Notes: generated by a model not told the origin, from the sequence alone. Shown: positions 4,495 to 30,634, counted from the first letter of the stretch. The stretch: DNA of 30,634 nt from a virus (IMGVR_UViG_2563366824_000009); one strand, 5' to 3'. Numbers and translations: made by a program.

Positions 4495-6717
4495 TTGGCT
4501 GTTCAATTCGCTTATCCGTGGAACGTCCCACGGTCGGCAATCTCCAGCCCATACCTTACTTATGAGCAACAGCATCGCCGCGACCGTATGTTCGCGGCTT
4601 TGCTGCATGCGAAAAAGGTGCTTTCTCTCCAGCCCGACTGCGTGCGGTTAGATGTTTATCGCACTGCTGCGGTGCTGGAGCAAAATCAGGGTAGTCAACG
4701 AGCCAATGCATTTTTAATCAGCTTCTGCAAAAAGGCATTGCCGCGTCTTGAACTGGTCGCAAAAAAATACGAATGCGCTGGTATCAACAGCAAGGTATCA
4801 ACCGCTGTTTTTGGAAGTCATTTTGATACTCAGCAAATGCAATATCTGTCGTCACGCATGGTTAATATGGTCGCCCGATATAACCGTCTCCCGGACATGT
4901 CGCGCGCTGATGTTGACCTGTTGGCCGCTGATATTGCTAATTTCATTCGTGGTGAACTTGCCAACATTAATGACCACGGATTCGGCGAGCTTAAAACGCT
5001 GTACACCTGGTATATTCGTGCTGGCTTTATTTCCCTCCAATTCAACGTTATCCCACCACATTGGGAGCGGGTTGAAAAAAAATATGTCGGTGCGGATGAA
5101 ATCGCACCGGCTATCGCCAAAATGTTTAACGATGGGTGGTGGCGCGGTCGTTTGCGCCGTGTTGCAGCTACGTGGCGCGAACACCTGCAAATTGCAGTCG
5201 GCAACGTCAGTAAGAAAAAAAACACTTACGCGAGTAAAAACTGCGTGACTGACTGGCGTGAACAAAAGCGCCGCACTCGTGAATTTCTCAAAGGTCTGGA
5301 TCTCGAAGACGAAGACGGCAACCGTATCAGCCTAATTGAAAAATATGATGGCTCAGTTGCTAACCCTGCGATTCGCCGCTGTGAGCTCATGACCCGCATT
5401 CGTGGGTTTGAAAACATCTGTAATGAGCTCGGTTATGTCGGTGAGTTTTACACTCTAACCGCGCCGTCAAAATATCACGCCACGACTAAAGCCGGTTACC
5501 GTAACAGCAAATGGAGCGGTGCCAGCCCGGCTGACACGCAAAACTATCTAACCGGTATCTGGGCGCGTATCCGTGCCAAACTACATCGGGAAGATGTCCG
5601 TATTTTCGGTATTCGTGTCGCCGAGCCCCATCACGACGGCACTCCACACTGGCACATGCTGATGTTCATGCTGCCGGAAGATGTTGAATATGTTCGCTCC
5701 ATCGTCCGTAAATACGCATGGAAAGAAGACCGCCACGAACTGAAAAGCGATAAATCCAAAAAAGCACGTTTCCACGCCGAGTCCATTGACCCGGAGAAAG
5801 GCAGCGCAACCGGCTATGTTGCTAAATACATTTCAAAAAATATCGACGGTTATGCTCTCGATGATGAAACCGATGATGAAAGCGGTGAGCTGCTGAAAGA
5901 GACAGCCCCCGCCGTTTCAGCATGGGCTGCGCGCTGGCACATCCGTCAGTTTCAGTTTATTGGTGGTGCGCCGGTGACGGTTTACCGTGAGTTGCGTCGC
6001 CTCGCTGATACCGAAACCGCGCACGGTCTGAGCGTTGAGTTTGCCGCCGTCCATGATGCCGCCGACGCTGGTGACTGGGCTGGTTATGTTAATGCTCAGG
6101 GTGGGCCGTTTGTCCGTCGCGATGATTTACAGGTGCGCACACTGTATGAACCGCGTACCGAGCTTAATCAGTACGGTGAGGAAACGGTATGTATTAAGGG
6201 GGTCTACGATTCCTCCATAGGTGCAGGAAGCCCGATTTTAACCCGGCTCACTCAGTGGAAGATTGTTCCGAAGCGTGCTGTTGATTTGGCCGTTGACCTT
6301 CAGGACGGCAAAGCCGTCCCTCGGAGTTCTGTCAATAACTGTACGGGAAGCGAAAGCGATCCACCGATACTGGATTTAACAAAACCACTGAGTCGGCGTG
6401 AAAGACGAGAATTAACCAACCGACTCAGGAAGCAAAAGCCAGCAGCACGGCGAAAATTCATCCACGGAACGGATGAGCAAAACGCAGCTATAGCTAAAAC
6501 TATCGATGAGATACATCTGACAACCGGCATTAATATCAGCCGGGGCGAAGCCCTGCACCTGATGGCCGGTGGTAAAAGTTGTTTTGATGGTAAATGGCTA
6601 CGCGGAACGGCCAAAGGAGAAATATTTTCCGCAGCACCATCGCATGAGGCTAAAGCTCGGAAAATCCTTAATCGTGTTGCGGCGATGGCTGAAGCATCAA
6701 AACCAATACATGAGTAA
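4495..6717 (+). CDS. A: Rolling-circle replication initiator endonuclease (P2 gpA family)
   Basis: 740 aa; TTG start preceded by GGGGGG SD; HUH-like PHWHMLMF and paired tyrosines in YVAKYISKNIDGY. Confidence 0.9.
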   Translation: MAVQFAYPWNVPRSAISSPYLTYEQQHRRDRMFAALLHAKKVLSLQPDCVRLDVYRTAAVLEQNQGSQRANAFLISFCKKALPRLELVAKKYECAGINSKVSTAVFGSHFDTQQMQYLSSRMVNMVARYNRLPDMSRADVDLLAADIANFIRGELANINDHGFGELKTLYTWYIRAGFISLQFNVIPPHWERVEKKYVGADEIAPAIAKMFNDGWWRGRLRRVAATWREHLQIAVGNVSKKKNTYASKNCVTDWREQKRRTREFLKGLDLEDEDGNRISLIEKYDGSVANPAIRRCELMTRIRGFENICNELGYVGEFYTLTAPSKYHATTKAGYRNSKWSGASPADTQNYLTGIWARIRAKLHREDVRIFGIRVAEPHHDGTPHWHMLMFMLPEDVEYVRSIVRKYAWKEDRHELKSDKSKKARFHAESIDPEKGSATGYVAKYISKNIDGYALDDETDDESGELLKETAPAVSAWAARWHIRQFQFIGGAPVTVYRELRRLADTETAHGLSVEFAAVHDAADAGDWAGYVNAQGGPFVRRDDLQVRTLYEPRTELNQYGEETVCIKGVYDSSIGAGSPILTRLTQWKIVPKRAVDLAVDLQDGKAVPRSSVNNCTGSESDPPILDLTKPLSRRERRELTNRLRKQKPAARRKFIHGTDEQNAAIAKTIDEIHLTTGINISRGEALHLMAGGKSCFDGKWLRGTAKGEIFSAAPSHEAKARKILNRVAAMAEASKPIHE

Positions 6718-6791: not shown

Positions 6792-6811
6792 TACTGTATA
6801 AATATACAGTA
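6792..6811. promoter_or_regulatory. LexA box (SOS operator) TACTGTATAAATATACAGTA
   Basis: Palindromic CTGT-N8-ACAG match; candidate -35 TTGCCA at 6778..6783 places the box over the -10 region; 20 nt upstream of ORF 6831. Confidence 0.7.
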
Positions 6812-6830: not shown

Positions 6831-7013
6831 ATGGTTGGCGAACATTTCAGCCGAACGCAGCAAAAGTGGGCTTGTGTGCAATTTATTGCCGAGGTATCTC
6901 TGATTGCAAACTGCAAGCCATCAGACTTAAAGCTCGCGCTCACTCTCATTGCAGACCTAGCAAACAGCGAAAATAACGAAACCGAAGATGATAATTTTTA
7001 TAAGGCTGATTAG
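6831..7013 (+). CDS. N-terminal part of Tum-like SOS-induced gene (60 aa), ends at in-frame TAG
   Basis: GGGAGG SD 6 nt upstream of ATG; in the same reading frame as the DinI-like ORF, separated only by TAG plus one codon. Confidence 0.45.
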   Translation: MVGEHFSRTQQKWACVQFIAEVSLIANCKPSDLKLALTLIADLANSENNETEDDNFYKAD

Positions 7014-7016
7014 ATT

Positions 7017-7250
7017 ATGAGAATCAATATCACGTTGGATAAAGAGCAAAAAATTAGTCAGGCAACATTGGATGCACTTGAGGCTGAACTGTACCGCAAT
7101 CTTCAACCTATTTACCCAAAGACTGCTATCCGAATTCGCAAGGGCTCCGCTAATGGCGTTGAACTAAGCGGTTTGAAACTGGACGAAGATAAAAAACGAG
7201 TAATGGAAATCATGCAGCAGGTATGGGAGGACGATAGCTGGCTGCATTAA
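7017..7250 (+). CDS. DinI-family protein (DinI-like domain as in 186 Tum C-terminus)
   Basis: 77 aa; MRINITLDKEQ...DALEAELYRNLQ...RIRKGSANGVELSGLKLDEDKKRVMEIMQQVWEDDSW matches DinI family pattern and length. Confidence 0.85.
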   Translation: MRINITLDKEQKISQATLDALEAELYRNLQPIYPKTAIRIRKGSANGVELSGLKLDEDKKRVMEIMQQVWEDDSWLH

Positions 7251-7252
7251 CA

Positions 7253-7321
7253 AACGCCGCCGGTGCTGAAACTTGCTTTCAGTGCTGGCGGGGTTGAACA
7301 ACTCGCACCGCGAGGCGCTAG
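7253..7321 (+). repeat. Copy 1 of 69-nt structured 3' element (15-bp stem, loop CTTGC at 7257..7291)
   Basis: Begins 2 nt after the DinI-like stop; about 85 percent identical to copy 2; stem pairs fully only as plus-strand RNA (uses G-U pairs). Confidence 0.6.
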
Positions 7322-7445
7322 TTCTTCCTCTCAAAGTTTCTCGATGTTTTATTGGTTACACACCAGTGATGAATGGGACGTTACCTTAGCGGGTTTTATA
7401 GTGGCGCTGTGGCAGCACTAAATAAAATTCATTGAGGGCGATAAT

Positions 7446-7655
7446 ATGCATCGACTACCGGGCGAAATTCCGCAGCACAAAACTAAAAGCATCAAACTGA
7501 TGGCCATCGTTCATCGTCTGCAGCAGATAATGGTCAATGAGAATTTGACACCCGCCGAGCTGGTCGGGTGTGCCGAAATAGTCAGGGATAATTACGGCAA
7601 GCTGGATAGCATCAGCAAGCCGACACATTACTCACCGCCACCACGTCGACCATAG
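7446..7655 (+). CDS. Hypothetical small protein (variable region)
   Basis: 69 aa; GAGGG SD 5-6 nt upstream; followed directly by repeat copy 2. Confidence 0.45.
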   Translation: MHRLPGEIPQHKTKSIKLMAIVHRLQQIMVNENLTPAELVGCAEIVRDNYGKLDSISKPTHYSPPPRRP

Positions 7656-7657
7656 AT

Positions 7658-7726
7658 AACGCCGCCGGAGTTGAAACTCGCTTTCAGGTCTGGCGGGGTT
7701 GAACAACGAGCTACGCGAGGCGTTAG
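7658..7726 (+). repeat. Copy 2 of 69-nt structured 3' element (stem-loop 7662..7696)
   Basis: Begins 2 nt after the stop of ORF 7446..7655; compensatory substitutions relative to copy 1 preserve pairing. Confidence 0.6.
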
Positions 7727-7788
7727 CCGGTCATAGCGTCGCAAATACTTCAACCGTCTGCTGGTTAAATAATTCGAGGTTTTTGGAC

Positions 7789-7983
7789 ATGCAAAATCCC
7801 CTTTCATCGAAAAATGACCCGTTTGCCGATTGGGCAAAGAATCTGACTTTAATGGCTTTAAATAACGACCTGAGCTCTCGCGAGGTGGAAAGCTACACCG
7901 CAAAAATGGTCGAGCAGGCCGGTAAAGATGAGCTATCAGTCGTTATCAAACACCTGTTAAATCACATCAGAATGCGCAAATAA
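7789..7983 (+). CDS. Hypothetical small protein (variable region); possibly distant paralogue of 7446..7655
   Basis: Start moved to ATG 7789 (MQNPLSS...) with GAGG about 9 nt upstream, because the ORF-track start overlaps repeat copy 2. Confidence 0.4.
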   Translation: MQNPLSSKNDPFADWAKNLTLMALNNDLSSREVESYTAKMVEQAGKDELSVVIKHLLNHIRMRK

Positions 7984-7999
7984 GAGGAACTATATAAAT

Positions 8000-8101
8000 A
8001 TGTTATCTCTCGTTTATGAAAATCCGTGGACGACGATTTTTCTGATGATTGTTGCCAGCATGTGCCTCAACAGTGTTATTGGCGCATTGCGCGGTCATTA
8101 A
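8000..8101 (+). CDS. 33-aa hydrophobic peptide MLSLVYENPWTTIFLMIVASMCLNSVIGALRGH (small membrane peptide)
   Basis: Not in ORF track (too short); AAGAGGA at 7982..7988 before ATG 8000; single predicted TM helix; followed by terminator. Confidence 0.35.
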   Translation: MLSLVYENPWTTIFLMIVASMCLNSVIGALRGH

Positions 8102-8122
8102 TCGCGACAAAACCAGACTAAA

Positions 8123-8150
8123 GCCGGCACCCTGAATGCCGGTTTTTTTA
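8123..8150 (+). terminator. Rho-independent terminator (CCGGCA / TGCCGG stem, 7-nt loop, T7 tract)
   Basis: Stem 8124..8129 with 8137..8142 followed by TTTTTTT at 8143..8149. Confidence 0.55.
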
Positions 8151-8309
8151 TGCCATTTTTCCGCGAATTTCCCGTTTTTTAGTCGTGCATGCATCAGGTG
8201 CATGGTTTTGCATGCGTCAGTCTTGCCCGTTCTGTTCGTGCGCCGCCAGAGCTAGCGCGGATCCAGAGTTGTCATGCAACTGCATTAAAACCGCCCCATA
8301 AAGCGGGCA

Positions 8310-8328: not shown

Positions 8329-8532
8329 TGCGCGCCAGCGGTGGTGCGTATTATTAAAAATTATCGTCTGAGAACGTCGTGACGGCGCTGTAGTGGCCGG
8401 GTGTGATCGTGGGCGCGTGGTGCGTCTGTGGCGTGGTGCTAAAGGATGGGATCAGTTGCACAATTTTACGGTTTCGCTTTGGCTAATATCCATATTGAGA
8501 CTTTATGTTCCCCACAACAGTTGGAGGCTTTA

Positions 8533-8757
8533 ATGGATAACTATCATATTACAAAAGATGGCGATAAGTGGAAGTTGCAAAAAGAGGGCAATGACCGCCC
8601 TAGCAAGACCGCGACCACAAAGGCCGAGCTGATTAAAACAACATCTGAGTTTATGTCGAACAAAACAGGCTCGGTCAAAATTCACAAGGAAGATGGGAAA
8701 ATTCAGGAAGAACGCACTTATCAGAGAAAAGATGATCCTAAAAAGTCTAAAGGCTAA
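8533..8757 (+). CDS. DUF2188-like small protein
   Basis: 74 aa from ATG 8533 with GGAGG SD; pattern YHITKDGDKWKL...GSVKIHKEDGKIQEERTYQRKDDP resembles the DUF2188 family. Confidence 0.5.
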   Translation: MDNYHITKDGDKWKLQKEGNDRPSKTATTKAELIKTTSEFMSNKTGSVKIHKEDGKIQEERTYQRKDDPKKSKG

Positions 8758-29468: not shown

Positions 29469-30634
29469 TAACGGGGATGGCAATTGACGCCGGTGCCAGC
29501 CTTGCACCGGCATTTATGTTGACGCTGAACAGCCAGGACATTACCAGCAATTTTAGTGACCGATTGATTTCTCTCACCATGACCGATAACCGGGGTTTTG
29601 AGGCTGACCAGCTCGATATTGAGCTTGATGATACCGACGGGAAAGTTGAGTTACCCCTGCGCGGGGCAGTGCTGACGCTGTGGCTTGGCTGGCAGGGCTC
29701 GGCGTTGCTGAATAAGGGGGATTTTACGGTCGATGAGATTGAGCACCGGGGAGCGCCTGACACCCTGACCATCCGGGCGCGCAGCGCGGACTTTCGCGGC
29801 ACGCTAAATTCCAGGCGTGAAGAGTCATGGCATGACACCACCATCGGAGAACTGGTCAGCACCATCGCAAAACGCAATAAACTGACGGCCAGTGTCGCTG
29901 ATTCACTGAAAAAAATCCCGGTACCGCATATCGACCAGTCGCAGGAGTCCGACGCGGTGTTTCTGACCCGGCTAGCTGACCGAAACGGAGCTGCGGTGTC
30001 AGTGAAAGCGGGGAAATTGCTGTTTCTGAAAGTCGGTAGTGCGATGACGGCCAGCGGCAGACCCATCCCGCAAATGACGCTGACCCGTAGCAATGGTGAC
30101 CGTCATCAATTTGCTATTGCCGACCGTGGGGCTTATACCGGCGTAACGGCAAAATGGTTGCACACCAAAGACCCGAAGCCGCAAAAGCAAAAAGTGACGC
30201 TGAAACGCCAGCCAAAAGAGAAACACCTACGCGCACTGGAGCACCCGAAAGCAAAACCTGTCAGCAAAAAGACAAAGGCCAAAAAAGAGCAGGAGGCTCG
30301 CGAGGGTGAGTATATGGCCGGTGAAGCCGATAACGTGCTGGCGCTGACAACGGTCTACGCATCAAAGGCGCAGGCGATGCGTGCCGCTCAGGCTAAGTGG
30401 GATAAACTGCAGCGAGGCGTTGCGGAGTTTTCAATCACACTGGCGCTAGGGCGAGCGGATTTATTTCCTGAGACGCCTGTACGTGTGTCGGGCTTTAAGC
30501 GCGTCATAGACGAGCAGGCATGGTTAATCAGCAAGGTGACCCACAACCTCAATAATAACGGTTTCACGACGGGCTTAGAGCTTGAGGTTAAACTCTCCGA
30601 TGTGGAGTACAGCTCAGAAGAAAATGAGGAGTGA
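29465..30634 (+). CDS. D: Tail protein D (late control D family)
   Basis: 389 aa (P2 D about 387 aa); last gene of tail cluster; stop at window end. Confidence 0.9.
   Translation: MITGMAIDAGASLAPAFMLTLNSQDITSNFSDRLISLTMTDNRGFEADQLDIELDDTDGKVELPLRGAVLTLWLGWQGSALLNKGDFTVDEIEHRGAPDTLTIRARSADFRGTLNSRREESWHDTTIGELVSTIAKRNKLTASVADSLKKIPVPHIDQSQESDAVFLTRLADRNGAAVSVKAGKLLFLKVGSAMTASGRPIPQMTLTRSNGDRHQFAIADRGAYTGVTAKWLHTKDPKPQKQKVTLKRQPKEKHLRALEHPKAKPVSKKTKAKKEQEAREGEYMAGEADNVLALTTVYASKAQAMRAAQAKWDKLQRGVAEFSITLALGRADLFPETPVRVSGFKRVIDEQAWLISKVTHNLNNNGFTTGLELEVKLSDVEYSSEENEE

Follow-up and report, generated by a model that had tools for sequence, protein, structure and literature searches.

A conserved two-hairpin element in the tum/dinI SOS operon of 186/PSP3/Wphi-type phages: a probable cis-acting RNA at the border of a variable cargo slot

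Phages of the 186, PSP3 and Wphi type share, as a family-wide feature, a 69-nt intergenic element in the tum/dinI SOS-induction operon that probably acts in cis, as an RNA of the sense strand. The element is built of a hairpin (P1) whose sequence drifts freely with its pairing retained, a one-G linker, and a second hairpin (P2) with a TTAG end, and it represents a previously unannotated structured RNA in this operon. A cis-acting RNA is the best supported reading because the hairpins covary, G.U pairs are favored over A.C, the orientation is always sense, and the element lies inside a mapped transcript.

The analysis started from a 30634-nt stretch of viral DNA (IMGVR_UViG_2563366824_000009), referred to here as the window, which is the genome of a 186/PSP3-type phage of the P2 family. 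The window appears to hold a complete phage genome, circularly permuted, and is nearly equal in length to PSP3 (30636 nt); its gene A is 99.7% identical to the counterpart in Escherichia phage vB_EcoM-613R3. The features discussed below are as follows, in window coordinates:

4495-6717, read rightwards: replication gene A
6792-6811, + strand: perfect LexA box TACTGTATAAATATACAGTA, recognized from sequence and equivalent in position to the 186 p95/LexA site
6831-7013, + strand: tumA-like gene (phrog_1993), just 3' of the LexA box
7017-7250, + strand: tumB/DinI-family gene (Pfam DinI, E = 7e-24), TAA at 7248-7250
7253-7321, + strand: E1, copy 1 of the element, internal (repeat search; covariance-model score 94.4 bits)
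7253-7295, + strand: P1 of E1, composed of AAC, a G.G mismatch, a 15-bp stem, a loop and GUU (minimum free energy, MFE, structure; pair counts in 67 + 49 homologues)
7297-7319, + strand: P2 of E1, AAC-AA-CUCGC-ACC-GCGAG-GC-GCU, with U-A and C-G in place of tandem G.A pairs
7446-7655, + strand: gp37/orf92-like gene (phrog_11386), TAG at 7653-7655
7658-7726, + strand: E2, copy 2, distal, with the canonical tail GGTTGAACAACGAGCnnnGCGAGGCGTTAG (repeat search; covariance-model score 90.9 bits)
7658-7700, + strand: P1 of E2, 14 bp plus a G.G 1x1 loop, with the AAC/GUU pairs (MFE structure)
7702-7724, + strand: P2 of E2, AAC-AA-C[GA]GC-UAC-GC[GA]G-GC-GUU, with tandem G.A/A.G pairs (RNAalifold consensus, pair counts)
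8124-8149, + strand: t95b-like intrinsic terminator, CCGGCA..TGCCGG followed by T7 (sequence; homology to the annotated 186 t95b)

Because a perfect LexA box lies upstream of the tumA-like gene, the series tumA-tumB-E1-gp37-E2 is read as an SOS operon like that of 186 p95, with the box marking, by its sequence and its equivalence to 186, a p95-like SOS promoter for a transcript that spans both copies. Two small ORFs separate the region of the gp37-like ORF from the t95b-like terminator, and beyond the terminator lie the cos region and then the portal and terminase genes on the opposite strand. A gene for a DUF2188 protein (phrog_3220; 8446-8757, + strand) is found between the presumed cos region and the portal gene. 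The interval from copy 1 to the gp37-like gene contains an ORF of 25 codons (7345-7421; MFYWLHTSDEWDVTLAGFIVALWQH) that has a hydrophobic core and is kept in PSP3-type two-copy phages; it is in frame with DinI, so that read-through of the DinI TAA would cross copy 1 into this ORF.

An earlier, sequence-only reading of the window had described two copies of a 69-nt element, about 85% identical and each starting 2 nt past a stop codon. A repeat search returned exactly two such copies (7253-7321 and 7658-7726; 86% identity), spaced by 405 nt, the first behind the TAA of the DinI gene and the second behind the TAG of the ORF at 7446-7655. The same reading held that the stem is complete only as plus-strand RNA, which agrees with the predicted folds: as + strand RNA, copy 1 reaches -35.5 kcal/mol (z -4.0) and copy 2 -28.5 kcal/mol (z -2.4), and the - strand folds are much weaker, at -25.3 kcal/mol (z -1.5) and -19.5 kcal/mol (z -1.2), respectively. 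The 15-bp stem that had been proposed for both copies is complete in copy 1, where positions 7257-7271 pair with 7277-7291 around a loop at 7272-7276 in the MFE structure, three of the pairs are G.U, and the stem is prolonged by AAC/GUU past a G.G mismatch; in copy 2 it is reduced to 14 bp and a 1x1 G.G mismatch. Likewise, the substitutions said to be matched between the two arms are matched at one of the two adjacent pairs that differ between the copies (U.G becomes A-U), and at the other pair G.U becomes a G.G mismatch.

The claim that the two copies reflect selection on structure is borne out by their homologues, in which pairing is conserved far above chance and which make a stronger case than two copies could. 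P1 comprises 18 bp in total (AAC, the G.G mismatch, the 15-bp stem, a loop of ~5 nt, and GUU). Among 67 distinct E. coli-type copies, 96.5% of P1 cells are paired, and pairing remains at 95% in 49 copies from across genera despite wholly different stem sequences (for example, AACGUUGCGGACGAUAAAA-CUGGU-UUUUACCGUCCGCAAGGUU), as compared to 30-49% in slid controls. Two-sided changes affect 15 of the 18 P1 pairs (150 cells) in this 49-copy set, whose alignment was fitted to the model and whose members are mutually related, such that shuffle statistics overstate their independence; the same pairing can be seen by eye in the raw cross-genus sequences. When P1 cells depart from Watson-Crick pairing, they do so far more often as G.U than as A.C, by 152:10 in one set and 89:15 in the other, and this asymmetry is the signature of pairing that is selected on the transcribed strand. 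Of 86 unique hairpins, 79 fold more stably on the + strand than as the complement, and the mean advantage of the + strand is 7.8 kcal/mol. P1 pairing is thus maintained by compensatory change, and on the + strand only.

The stretch that follows the P1 stem reads GGGGUUGAACAAC or GGGGTTGAACAAC, without a U-tract, in every copy, as the sequence-only reading had noted for the window; it is not a mere tail, since it forms a second, small hairpin. P2 has the form AAC-AA-C[GA]GC-(2-4 nt loop)-GC[GA]G-GC-GUU and is followed by AG, so that CGAGC...GCGAG, which looks like a sequence repeated directly, forms the two arms of a helix that contains tandem G.A/A.G pairs. The sole common variant of this helix, CUCGC, is found in copy 1 of the window, where both G.A pairs switch jointly to U-A and C-G. 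P2 is 97% paired and shows compensations from G-C to A-U and from C-G to U-A (RNAalifold consensus, pair counts). A loop-tail pseudoknot (loop CUCGC with GCGAG) was considered and rejected: it is pairable in 95% of the E. coli-type set, with one-sided transitions only, and it breaks down outside that set, in genera with loops such as CUGGU and UUUAU. An alternative AACG/CGUU helix was also dropped, as it cannot accommodate the GA to UC variant, which speaks for P2.

In contrast to the drifting P1, P2 hardly varies, and neither do its flanks, GGUUGAACAACGAG...CGAGGCGUUAG. Conservation within the element is highest in the 3' tail, which is nearly invariant over 30 nt, an invariance that is partly imposed by the search pattern in the one-genome-per-species set and that can be read without this bias in the DinI-selected set described below; GTTGAAC is invariant in the copies. 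Such invariance across genera is not explained by a simple stabilizer or processing hairpin. Where two copies are present, P2 of the internal one is decayed or Watson-Crick, so the function of P2 seems to be needed once, at the distal position; copy 1 of the window, with its CTCGC..GCGAG variant and an end of CTAG in place of TTAG, is typical of internal copies in both respects. Strongly diverged second copies, scoring 48-60 bits, were also observed (L163, 6223-6301; L166, 1656-1733); their tails are altered to GGGCTGAACAACGAGA..AAAGGTGTTAG and GAGTTGAGTAACGAGC..CGAGGCTTTAG, with TGA.(A/T)AACGAG ... AGG..TTAG as the positions that are kept.

The element extends well beyond the two copies of the window, to 66 phage records and many prophages. 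A search with the 69-nt query retrieved these 66 records, among them 186 (30344-30412), Wphi, a number of isolates named 'Peduovirus P2' and, with two copies, PSP3, and the element is annotated in none of them. A pattern scan of IMG/VR gave at least 120 loci, and a scan for the tail pattern in one genome per species gave ~42 true matches in about 40 species of Enterobacterales, within the genera Citrobacter, Enterobacter, Klebsiella/Raoultella, Leclercia, Kluyvera, Buttiauxella, Scandinavium, Phytobacter, Serratia, Pantoea, Erwinia, Mixta, Tatumella, Rosenbergiella and Symbiopectobacterium. As an unbiased sample, 80 IMG/VR loci were picked solely because their DinI is at least 92% identical to that of the window, and the element lies 2 nt after the stop codon in all of those with enough downstream sequence (about 78). 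By megablast, at least 110 of 5426 complete E. coli genomes contain the element, a lower bound owing to the 28-nt word, at one or two places each and without annotation; all contexts examined are P2-like prophages. Rfam 15 has no match at gathering score in the window, and none that overlaps the element at E <= 10 within 6900-8300. The element is missing from Rfam and from the annotation of every record examined.

Other members of the family are without it. Canonical P2, in which orf91 is directly followed by tin, does not have the element, and nor do ten Peduoviridae of greater distance, whose hosts range from Cronobacter to Vibrio, Haemophilus, Mannheimia and Aeromonas; no match better than E = 0.1 was found in ESSI-2, SEN5, Klebsiella ST16-OXA48phi5.4, Yersinia 56.17 and Arsenophonus, or in Vibrio kappa, HP2, Mannheimia, Aeromonas and P88. 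These absences indicate that the element is lineage-restricted, accessory and non-essential. In canonical P2 (L174, AF063097, 3146-3185) the gp37/orf92-like gene is missing as well, and the reverse-oriented tin starts 38 nt past orf91. Other 'P2' isolates (OU784549) and Wphi retain orf92 and the element, which are followed by a cytosine methylase gene.

The strand of the element is always that of the genes upstream of it. In 186 the annotated and mapped p95 SOS transcript contains it, between the stop codon of orf97 and t95b, and in Wphi-type phages it is on the sense strand of the early operon. The conserved operon ends at the element, and a variable cargo slot starts there, with the t95b terminator near cos as its right edge. 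In 34 of 63 measurable cases the slot is empty, the element ending 18-20 nt from a t95b-type terminator; in the remaining cases, cargo of at least 0.25-1.5 kb has been inserted precisely at the junction of TTAG with the terminator side. A comparison of 28 unique empty-slot sequences shows far more variation in the 20-nt spacer and the loop of the terminator than in the hairpin and tail, so the constraint on the element is independent of a downstream ORF.

One earlier suggestion, that the element is a module boundary of gene cassettes, fits well with the flanks of 180 instances, which fall into 32 upstream and 63 downstream families that occur in 88 combinations, with sharp breakpoints at the element edges. 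For example, 16 different downstream sequences adjoin the DinI end alone, and six upstream families share one downstream family. P1 variants are linked more tightly to the upstream family (z 12-19) than to the downstream family (z 5-9), and a variable triplet at positions 55-57 of the element, in P2, tracks both contexts; on this basis, crossovers can be placed in the invariant core. Two copies are present in the window, in PSP3 and in 13 of 99 IMG/VR loci, always ~405 nt apart around a gp37-like gene, the only gene ever found between two copies, and no arrays were seen (two copies at most). The two-copy state is thus one specific, old arrangement around the gp37-like gene, and not a general cassette array.

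The contents of the slot are diverse. The ORFs of three unrelated families begin 8-9 nt past the GAGG in P2, with the N-termini MGKKDxNYQ.., MGFPSPAQDY.. (S24/UmuD-like) and MRKLKAVW.. (in other genera), and an ORF abuts the tail in only 12 of 182 copies. The first family, of 85-90 aa (MGKKDxNYQ(V/I)VYRGE..WVFFQRPKECGGG..), starts 2-3 nt past the element in prophages of Pantoea, Citrobacter, Enterobacter, Raoultella and Phytobacter (loci L130, L131, L146, L151, L153, L155, L164, L171 and L223-type IMG/VR loci). A 107-aa ORF that starts MGFPSPAQDYVE and has an S24 peptidase/UmuD-like N-terminus begins 2 nt past the element in L149 (7206-7529) and L159 (Pseudescherichia / Escherichia sp.); in L159 the element directly follows tumA, and there is no dinI. 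A reverse-oriented cargo ORF (..GVNLVTS*) takes its TAA stop from the complement of the terminal TTAG of the element and is found just past it in L017, L049, L067, L080, L113 and L123; L025 and L074 keep just a 20-nt remnant of this ORF between element and terminator, which indicates deletion within the slot. In L123 (Klebsiella phage ST147-VIM1phi7.1), an XRE regulator and a retron-like RNA-directed DNA polymerase lie in the region 875-2303, behind a DinI remnant and ahead of the element, so cargo can also lie upstream of it; in this copy of the element, P1 consists of Watson-Crick pairs throughout and shows a swap from C-G to G-C.

The flank data bear directly on a different and unlikely reading, in which the element is a DNA-level recombination site, folded as + strand single-stranded DNA in an attC-like or HUH/relaxase-like manner, where a recombinase or nuclease exchanges cargo at a fixed point. 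Two sharp edges amid many unrelated flanks, a position directly after stop codons, crossovers that map within the invariant core, and a strand-specific hairpin closed by AAC...GTT, with GTTGAAC fitting the attC R' box GTTRRRY, are all as such a site would have them. In addition, the exchange mechanism at the hotspot in which the slot lies is acknowledged as unknown (PMC9122126). However, there are never more than two copies, always around the same gp37-like gene; the R'' box RYYYAAC is absent, the 30-nt invariant tail is unlike attC, and the G.T-rich stems are weak as DNA (mean -14.8 vs -25.2 kcal/mol as RNA). Neither a second site akin to the A-protein ori nor a further copy of the element was found elsewhere in the genome, the element is inherited vertically with dinI across genera, and homologous recombination in a 23-nt core explains the same pattern. 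It is distinctly unlikely that the cos-adjacent hotspot has a dedicated mechanism of exchange with the element as its cis-site, a phage 'cassette platform' whose folded hairpin and invariant P2/TTAG would set the point of joining for incoming defence or anti-defence cargo, beyond passive homology.

The empty slots raise the prospect, likewise an unlikely one, of a trans-acting RNA derived from the 3' UTR, whereby cleavage 3' of P1 would free the tail, spacer and t95b as an SOS-induced sRNA that uses the tail as its seed. 3' UTR-derived sRNAs combine an invariant tail, a variable spacer and a conserved terminator stem with a variable loop, and this is the pattern seen where the element ends 18-20 nt before a t95b-type terminator. 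The tail is, however, equally conserved where genes follow in place of the terminator, it is predicted to fold into P2 instead of being single-stranded, and a search for complementarity, made against satellite P4 and the remainder of the phage, yielded nothing beyond chance, and thus no target.

Action on RNA polymerase, as a put-like antiterminator or anti-pausing RNA that would carry SOS or early transcription through the cargo, is very unlikely. The size and gross architecture match those of the HK022 put RNAs, which are ~70 nt, cis-acting and made of two stem-loops (PMC9378689), the element is immediately upstream of the variable cargo, and P2 invariance would suit a conserved host partner such as RNA polymerase. 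Yet put sites are found just downstream of early promoters, ahead of the terminators that they suppress, and the element at the 3' end of an operon, often just 20 nt before the annotated terminator of the 186 p95 transcript, where read-through would run antisense to late genes; moreover, there is no evident sequence relation, and P1 is a plain long helix without the bulges of put. Least probable is an atypical attenuator or terminator that replaces 186 t95a after tum/dinI, for although E1 occupies the position equivalent to this partial terminator and its hairpin is strong and GC-rich, no copy has a U-tract after the stem, a scan shows no terminator-like site at the element (in agreement with the earlier judgement that it is not a classical intrinsic terminator), and genes of the same operon follow it.

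Several further candidates were rejected. A sigma-70 promoter with TTGAAC as its -35 would have no acceptable -10 and a variable spacer of 18-20 nt, and the scan found no promoter-like site at the element; a small ORF in the tail is ruled out by indels of 2-4 nt in the variable triplet. A Chi-like GCTGGCGG in the 3' arm and a LexA box in the hairpin top were set aside because the hairpin sequence is not conserved across genera, as was a similarity of UUGAACAA to the rrn/lambda boxA, which lacks the defining core GCUCUU. A minus-strand terminator for convergent cargo genes was rejected because the U-rich flank that it would require is not conserved and the G.U pairs of the stem turn into A.C on the - strand.

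Within the preferred reading of a cis-acting RNA on the sense strand, a more specific combination can be put forward tentatively, on the model of the intercistronic hairpins known from phage and bacterial messages, in which the element closes the LexA-controlled tum/dinI operon, with P1 as a barrier or processing site, P2 as a recognition module and the core as a homology anchor. P1 may be a barrier to 3' exonucleases and/or a processing determinant for RNase III or RNase E, and would in this way set the 3' end and stability of the upstream tum/dinI message and separate this message from downstream RNA. RNase III processing sites span about two turns of dsRNA and often contain an internal mismatch; P1, which has 18 bp and a G.G mismatch that is conserved 3 bp above the base, is of borderline length for such a site. 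P2 could be a module that a protein or the ribosome recognizes by sequence. The GAGG in it, which is partly paired within P2 in the predicted fold, might serve as a Shine-Dalgarno sequence where an ORF abuts P2, a role that cannot be general because so few copies have an abutting ORF. A side effect would be that the invariant core, about 23-30 nt long, offers homology where related phages swap cargo modules. The roles proposed for the element thus concern mRNA stability, processing or translation, and the functions suggested by the sequence-only reading, namely an mRNA 3' stabilizer, an RNase III site or a protein-binding element, are plausible. This combination fits the report that tum is the top-abundance transcript of an uninduced 186-like prophage, for which post-transcriptional control was suspected (PMC7067206).

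P2-like prophages are among the commonest in Enterobacterales, and their cos-adjacent hotspot is a major reservoir of anti-phage systems in which the turnover of cargo is an open question (Rousset et al., PMC9122126). The element gives the slot of this hotspot a precise and conserved left border, and offers a testable site, a concrete left-hand recombination anchor, for crossovers there. Its covariance model is also a practical marker with which the border of the hotspot can be located in any 186/PSP3/Wphi-type prophage.

When compared to known systems, the element lacks defining features of the intrinsic terminator, put, attC and REP. It shares with the intrinsic terminator a GC-rich hairpin (at the folding energies given above for the two window copies) and is without the U-rich tract. 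With 186 t95a and t95b it has the operon and neighborhood in common, since E1 sits where t95a does and only 20 nt separate the distal copy from t95b downstream of it, but those terminators have a canonical hairpin with a U-tract, whereas the element is not of this kind and is unannotated in 186, PSP3 and Wphi. The HK022 put RNA, which binds the zinc-binding domain of the RNA polymerase beta' subunit and causes read-through of terminators (PMC9378689), resembles the element in its length of ~70 nt, its action in cis (probable for the element) on the transcript of the phage itself and its two adjacent stem-loops (P1 and P2 are predicted over 69 nt). The helix architecture is different, however, and the element is found where the operon ends, with 0.45 kb or more between it and the LexA-box promoter and, in many cases, 20 nt between it and the last terminator.

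The likeness to integron attC sites is closer in form: the element follows the stop codon of a promoterless gene, folds into an imperfect, strand-specific hairpin with AAC/GTT closure, and marks cassette borders. The attC R' box has the consensus GTTRRRY, and an invariant GTTGAAC is present at the 3' end of the hairpin; for R'', only AAC is conserved, and the bases that precede it (ACA, GCA, GAG, GAT and others) cannot pair with GAAC. Unlike attC, the element forms no arrays (at most two copies, ~405 nt apart), is conserved beyond the R boxes, with a nearly invariant 30-nt tail, and has G.T-rich stems that favor RNA.

REP/BIME repeats are host-wide, with a consensus of their own, and are dispersed in many copies in the host chromosome, whereas the element is found at one or two places per E. 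coli genome and in at least 110 of 5426 genomes. T7 RNase III sites, lambda sib and REP elements are intercistronic stem-loops that stabilize or process messages, and the element is like them in being a stable sense hairpin behind a coding region of a polycistronic transcript, with no terminator function. They differ from it in being defined by cleavage or stability experiments, where the element is known from sequence, and in that none has a P2/TTAG module.

The nearest described concept is the PeSL of T4-type phages, a conserved stem-loop of ~70 nt that belongs to a class of 'mobile regulatory cassettes' (Arbiol et al. 2010, PMC2839356). Each PeSL carries both a functional terminator and a strong early promoter of the sigma-70 type, and there are many PeSLs in a genome; the element has the stem-loop without a promoter-like site or U-tract, its variable-length triplet would make any promoter spacer vary, and it occurs in one or two copies with a second, invariant hairpin. 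What the two share is a short stem-loop intergenic cassette that borders non-essential genes in hyperplastic regions and takes part in the shuffling of modules through recombination between copies, which for the element is seen in its 88 flank combinations and in a linkage that decays across it.
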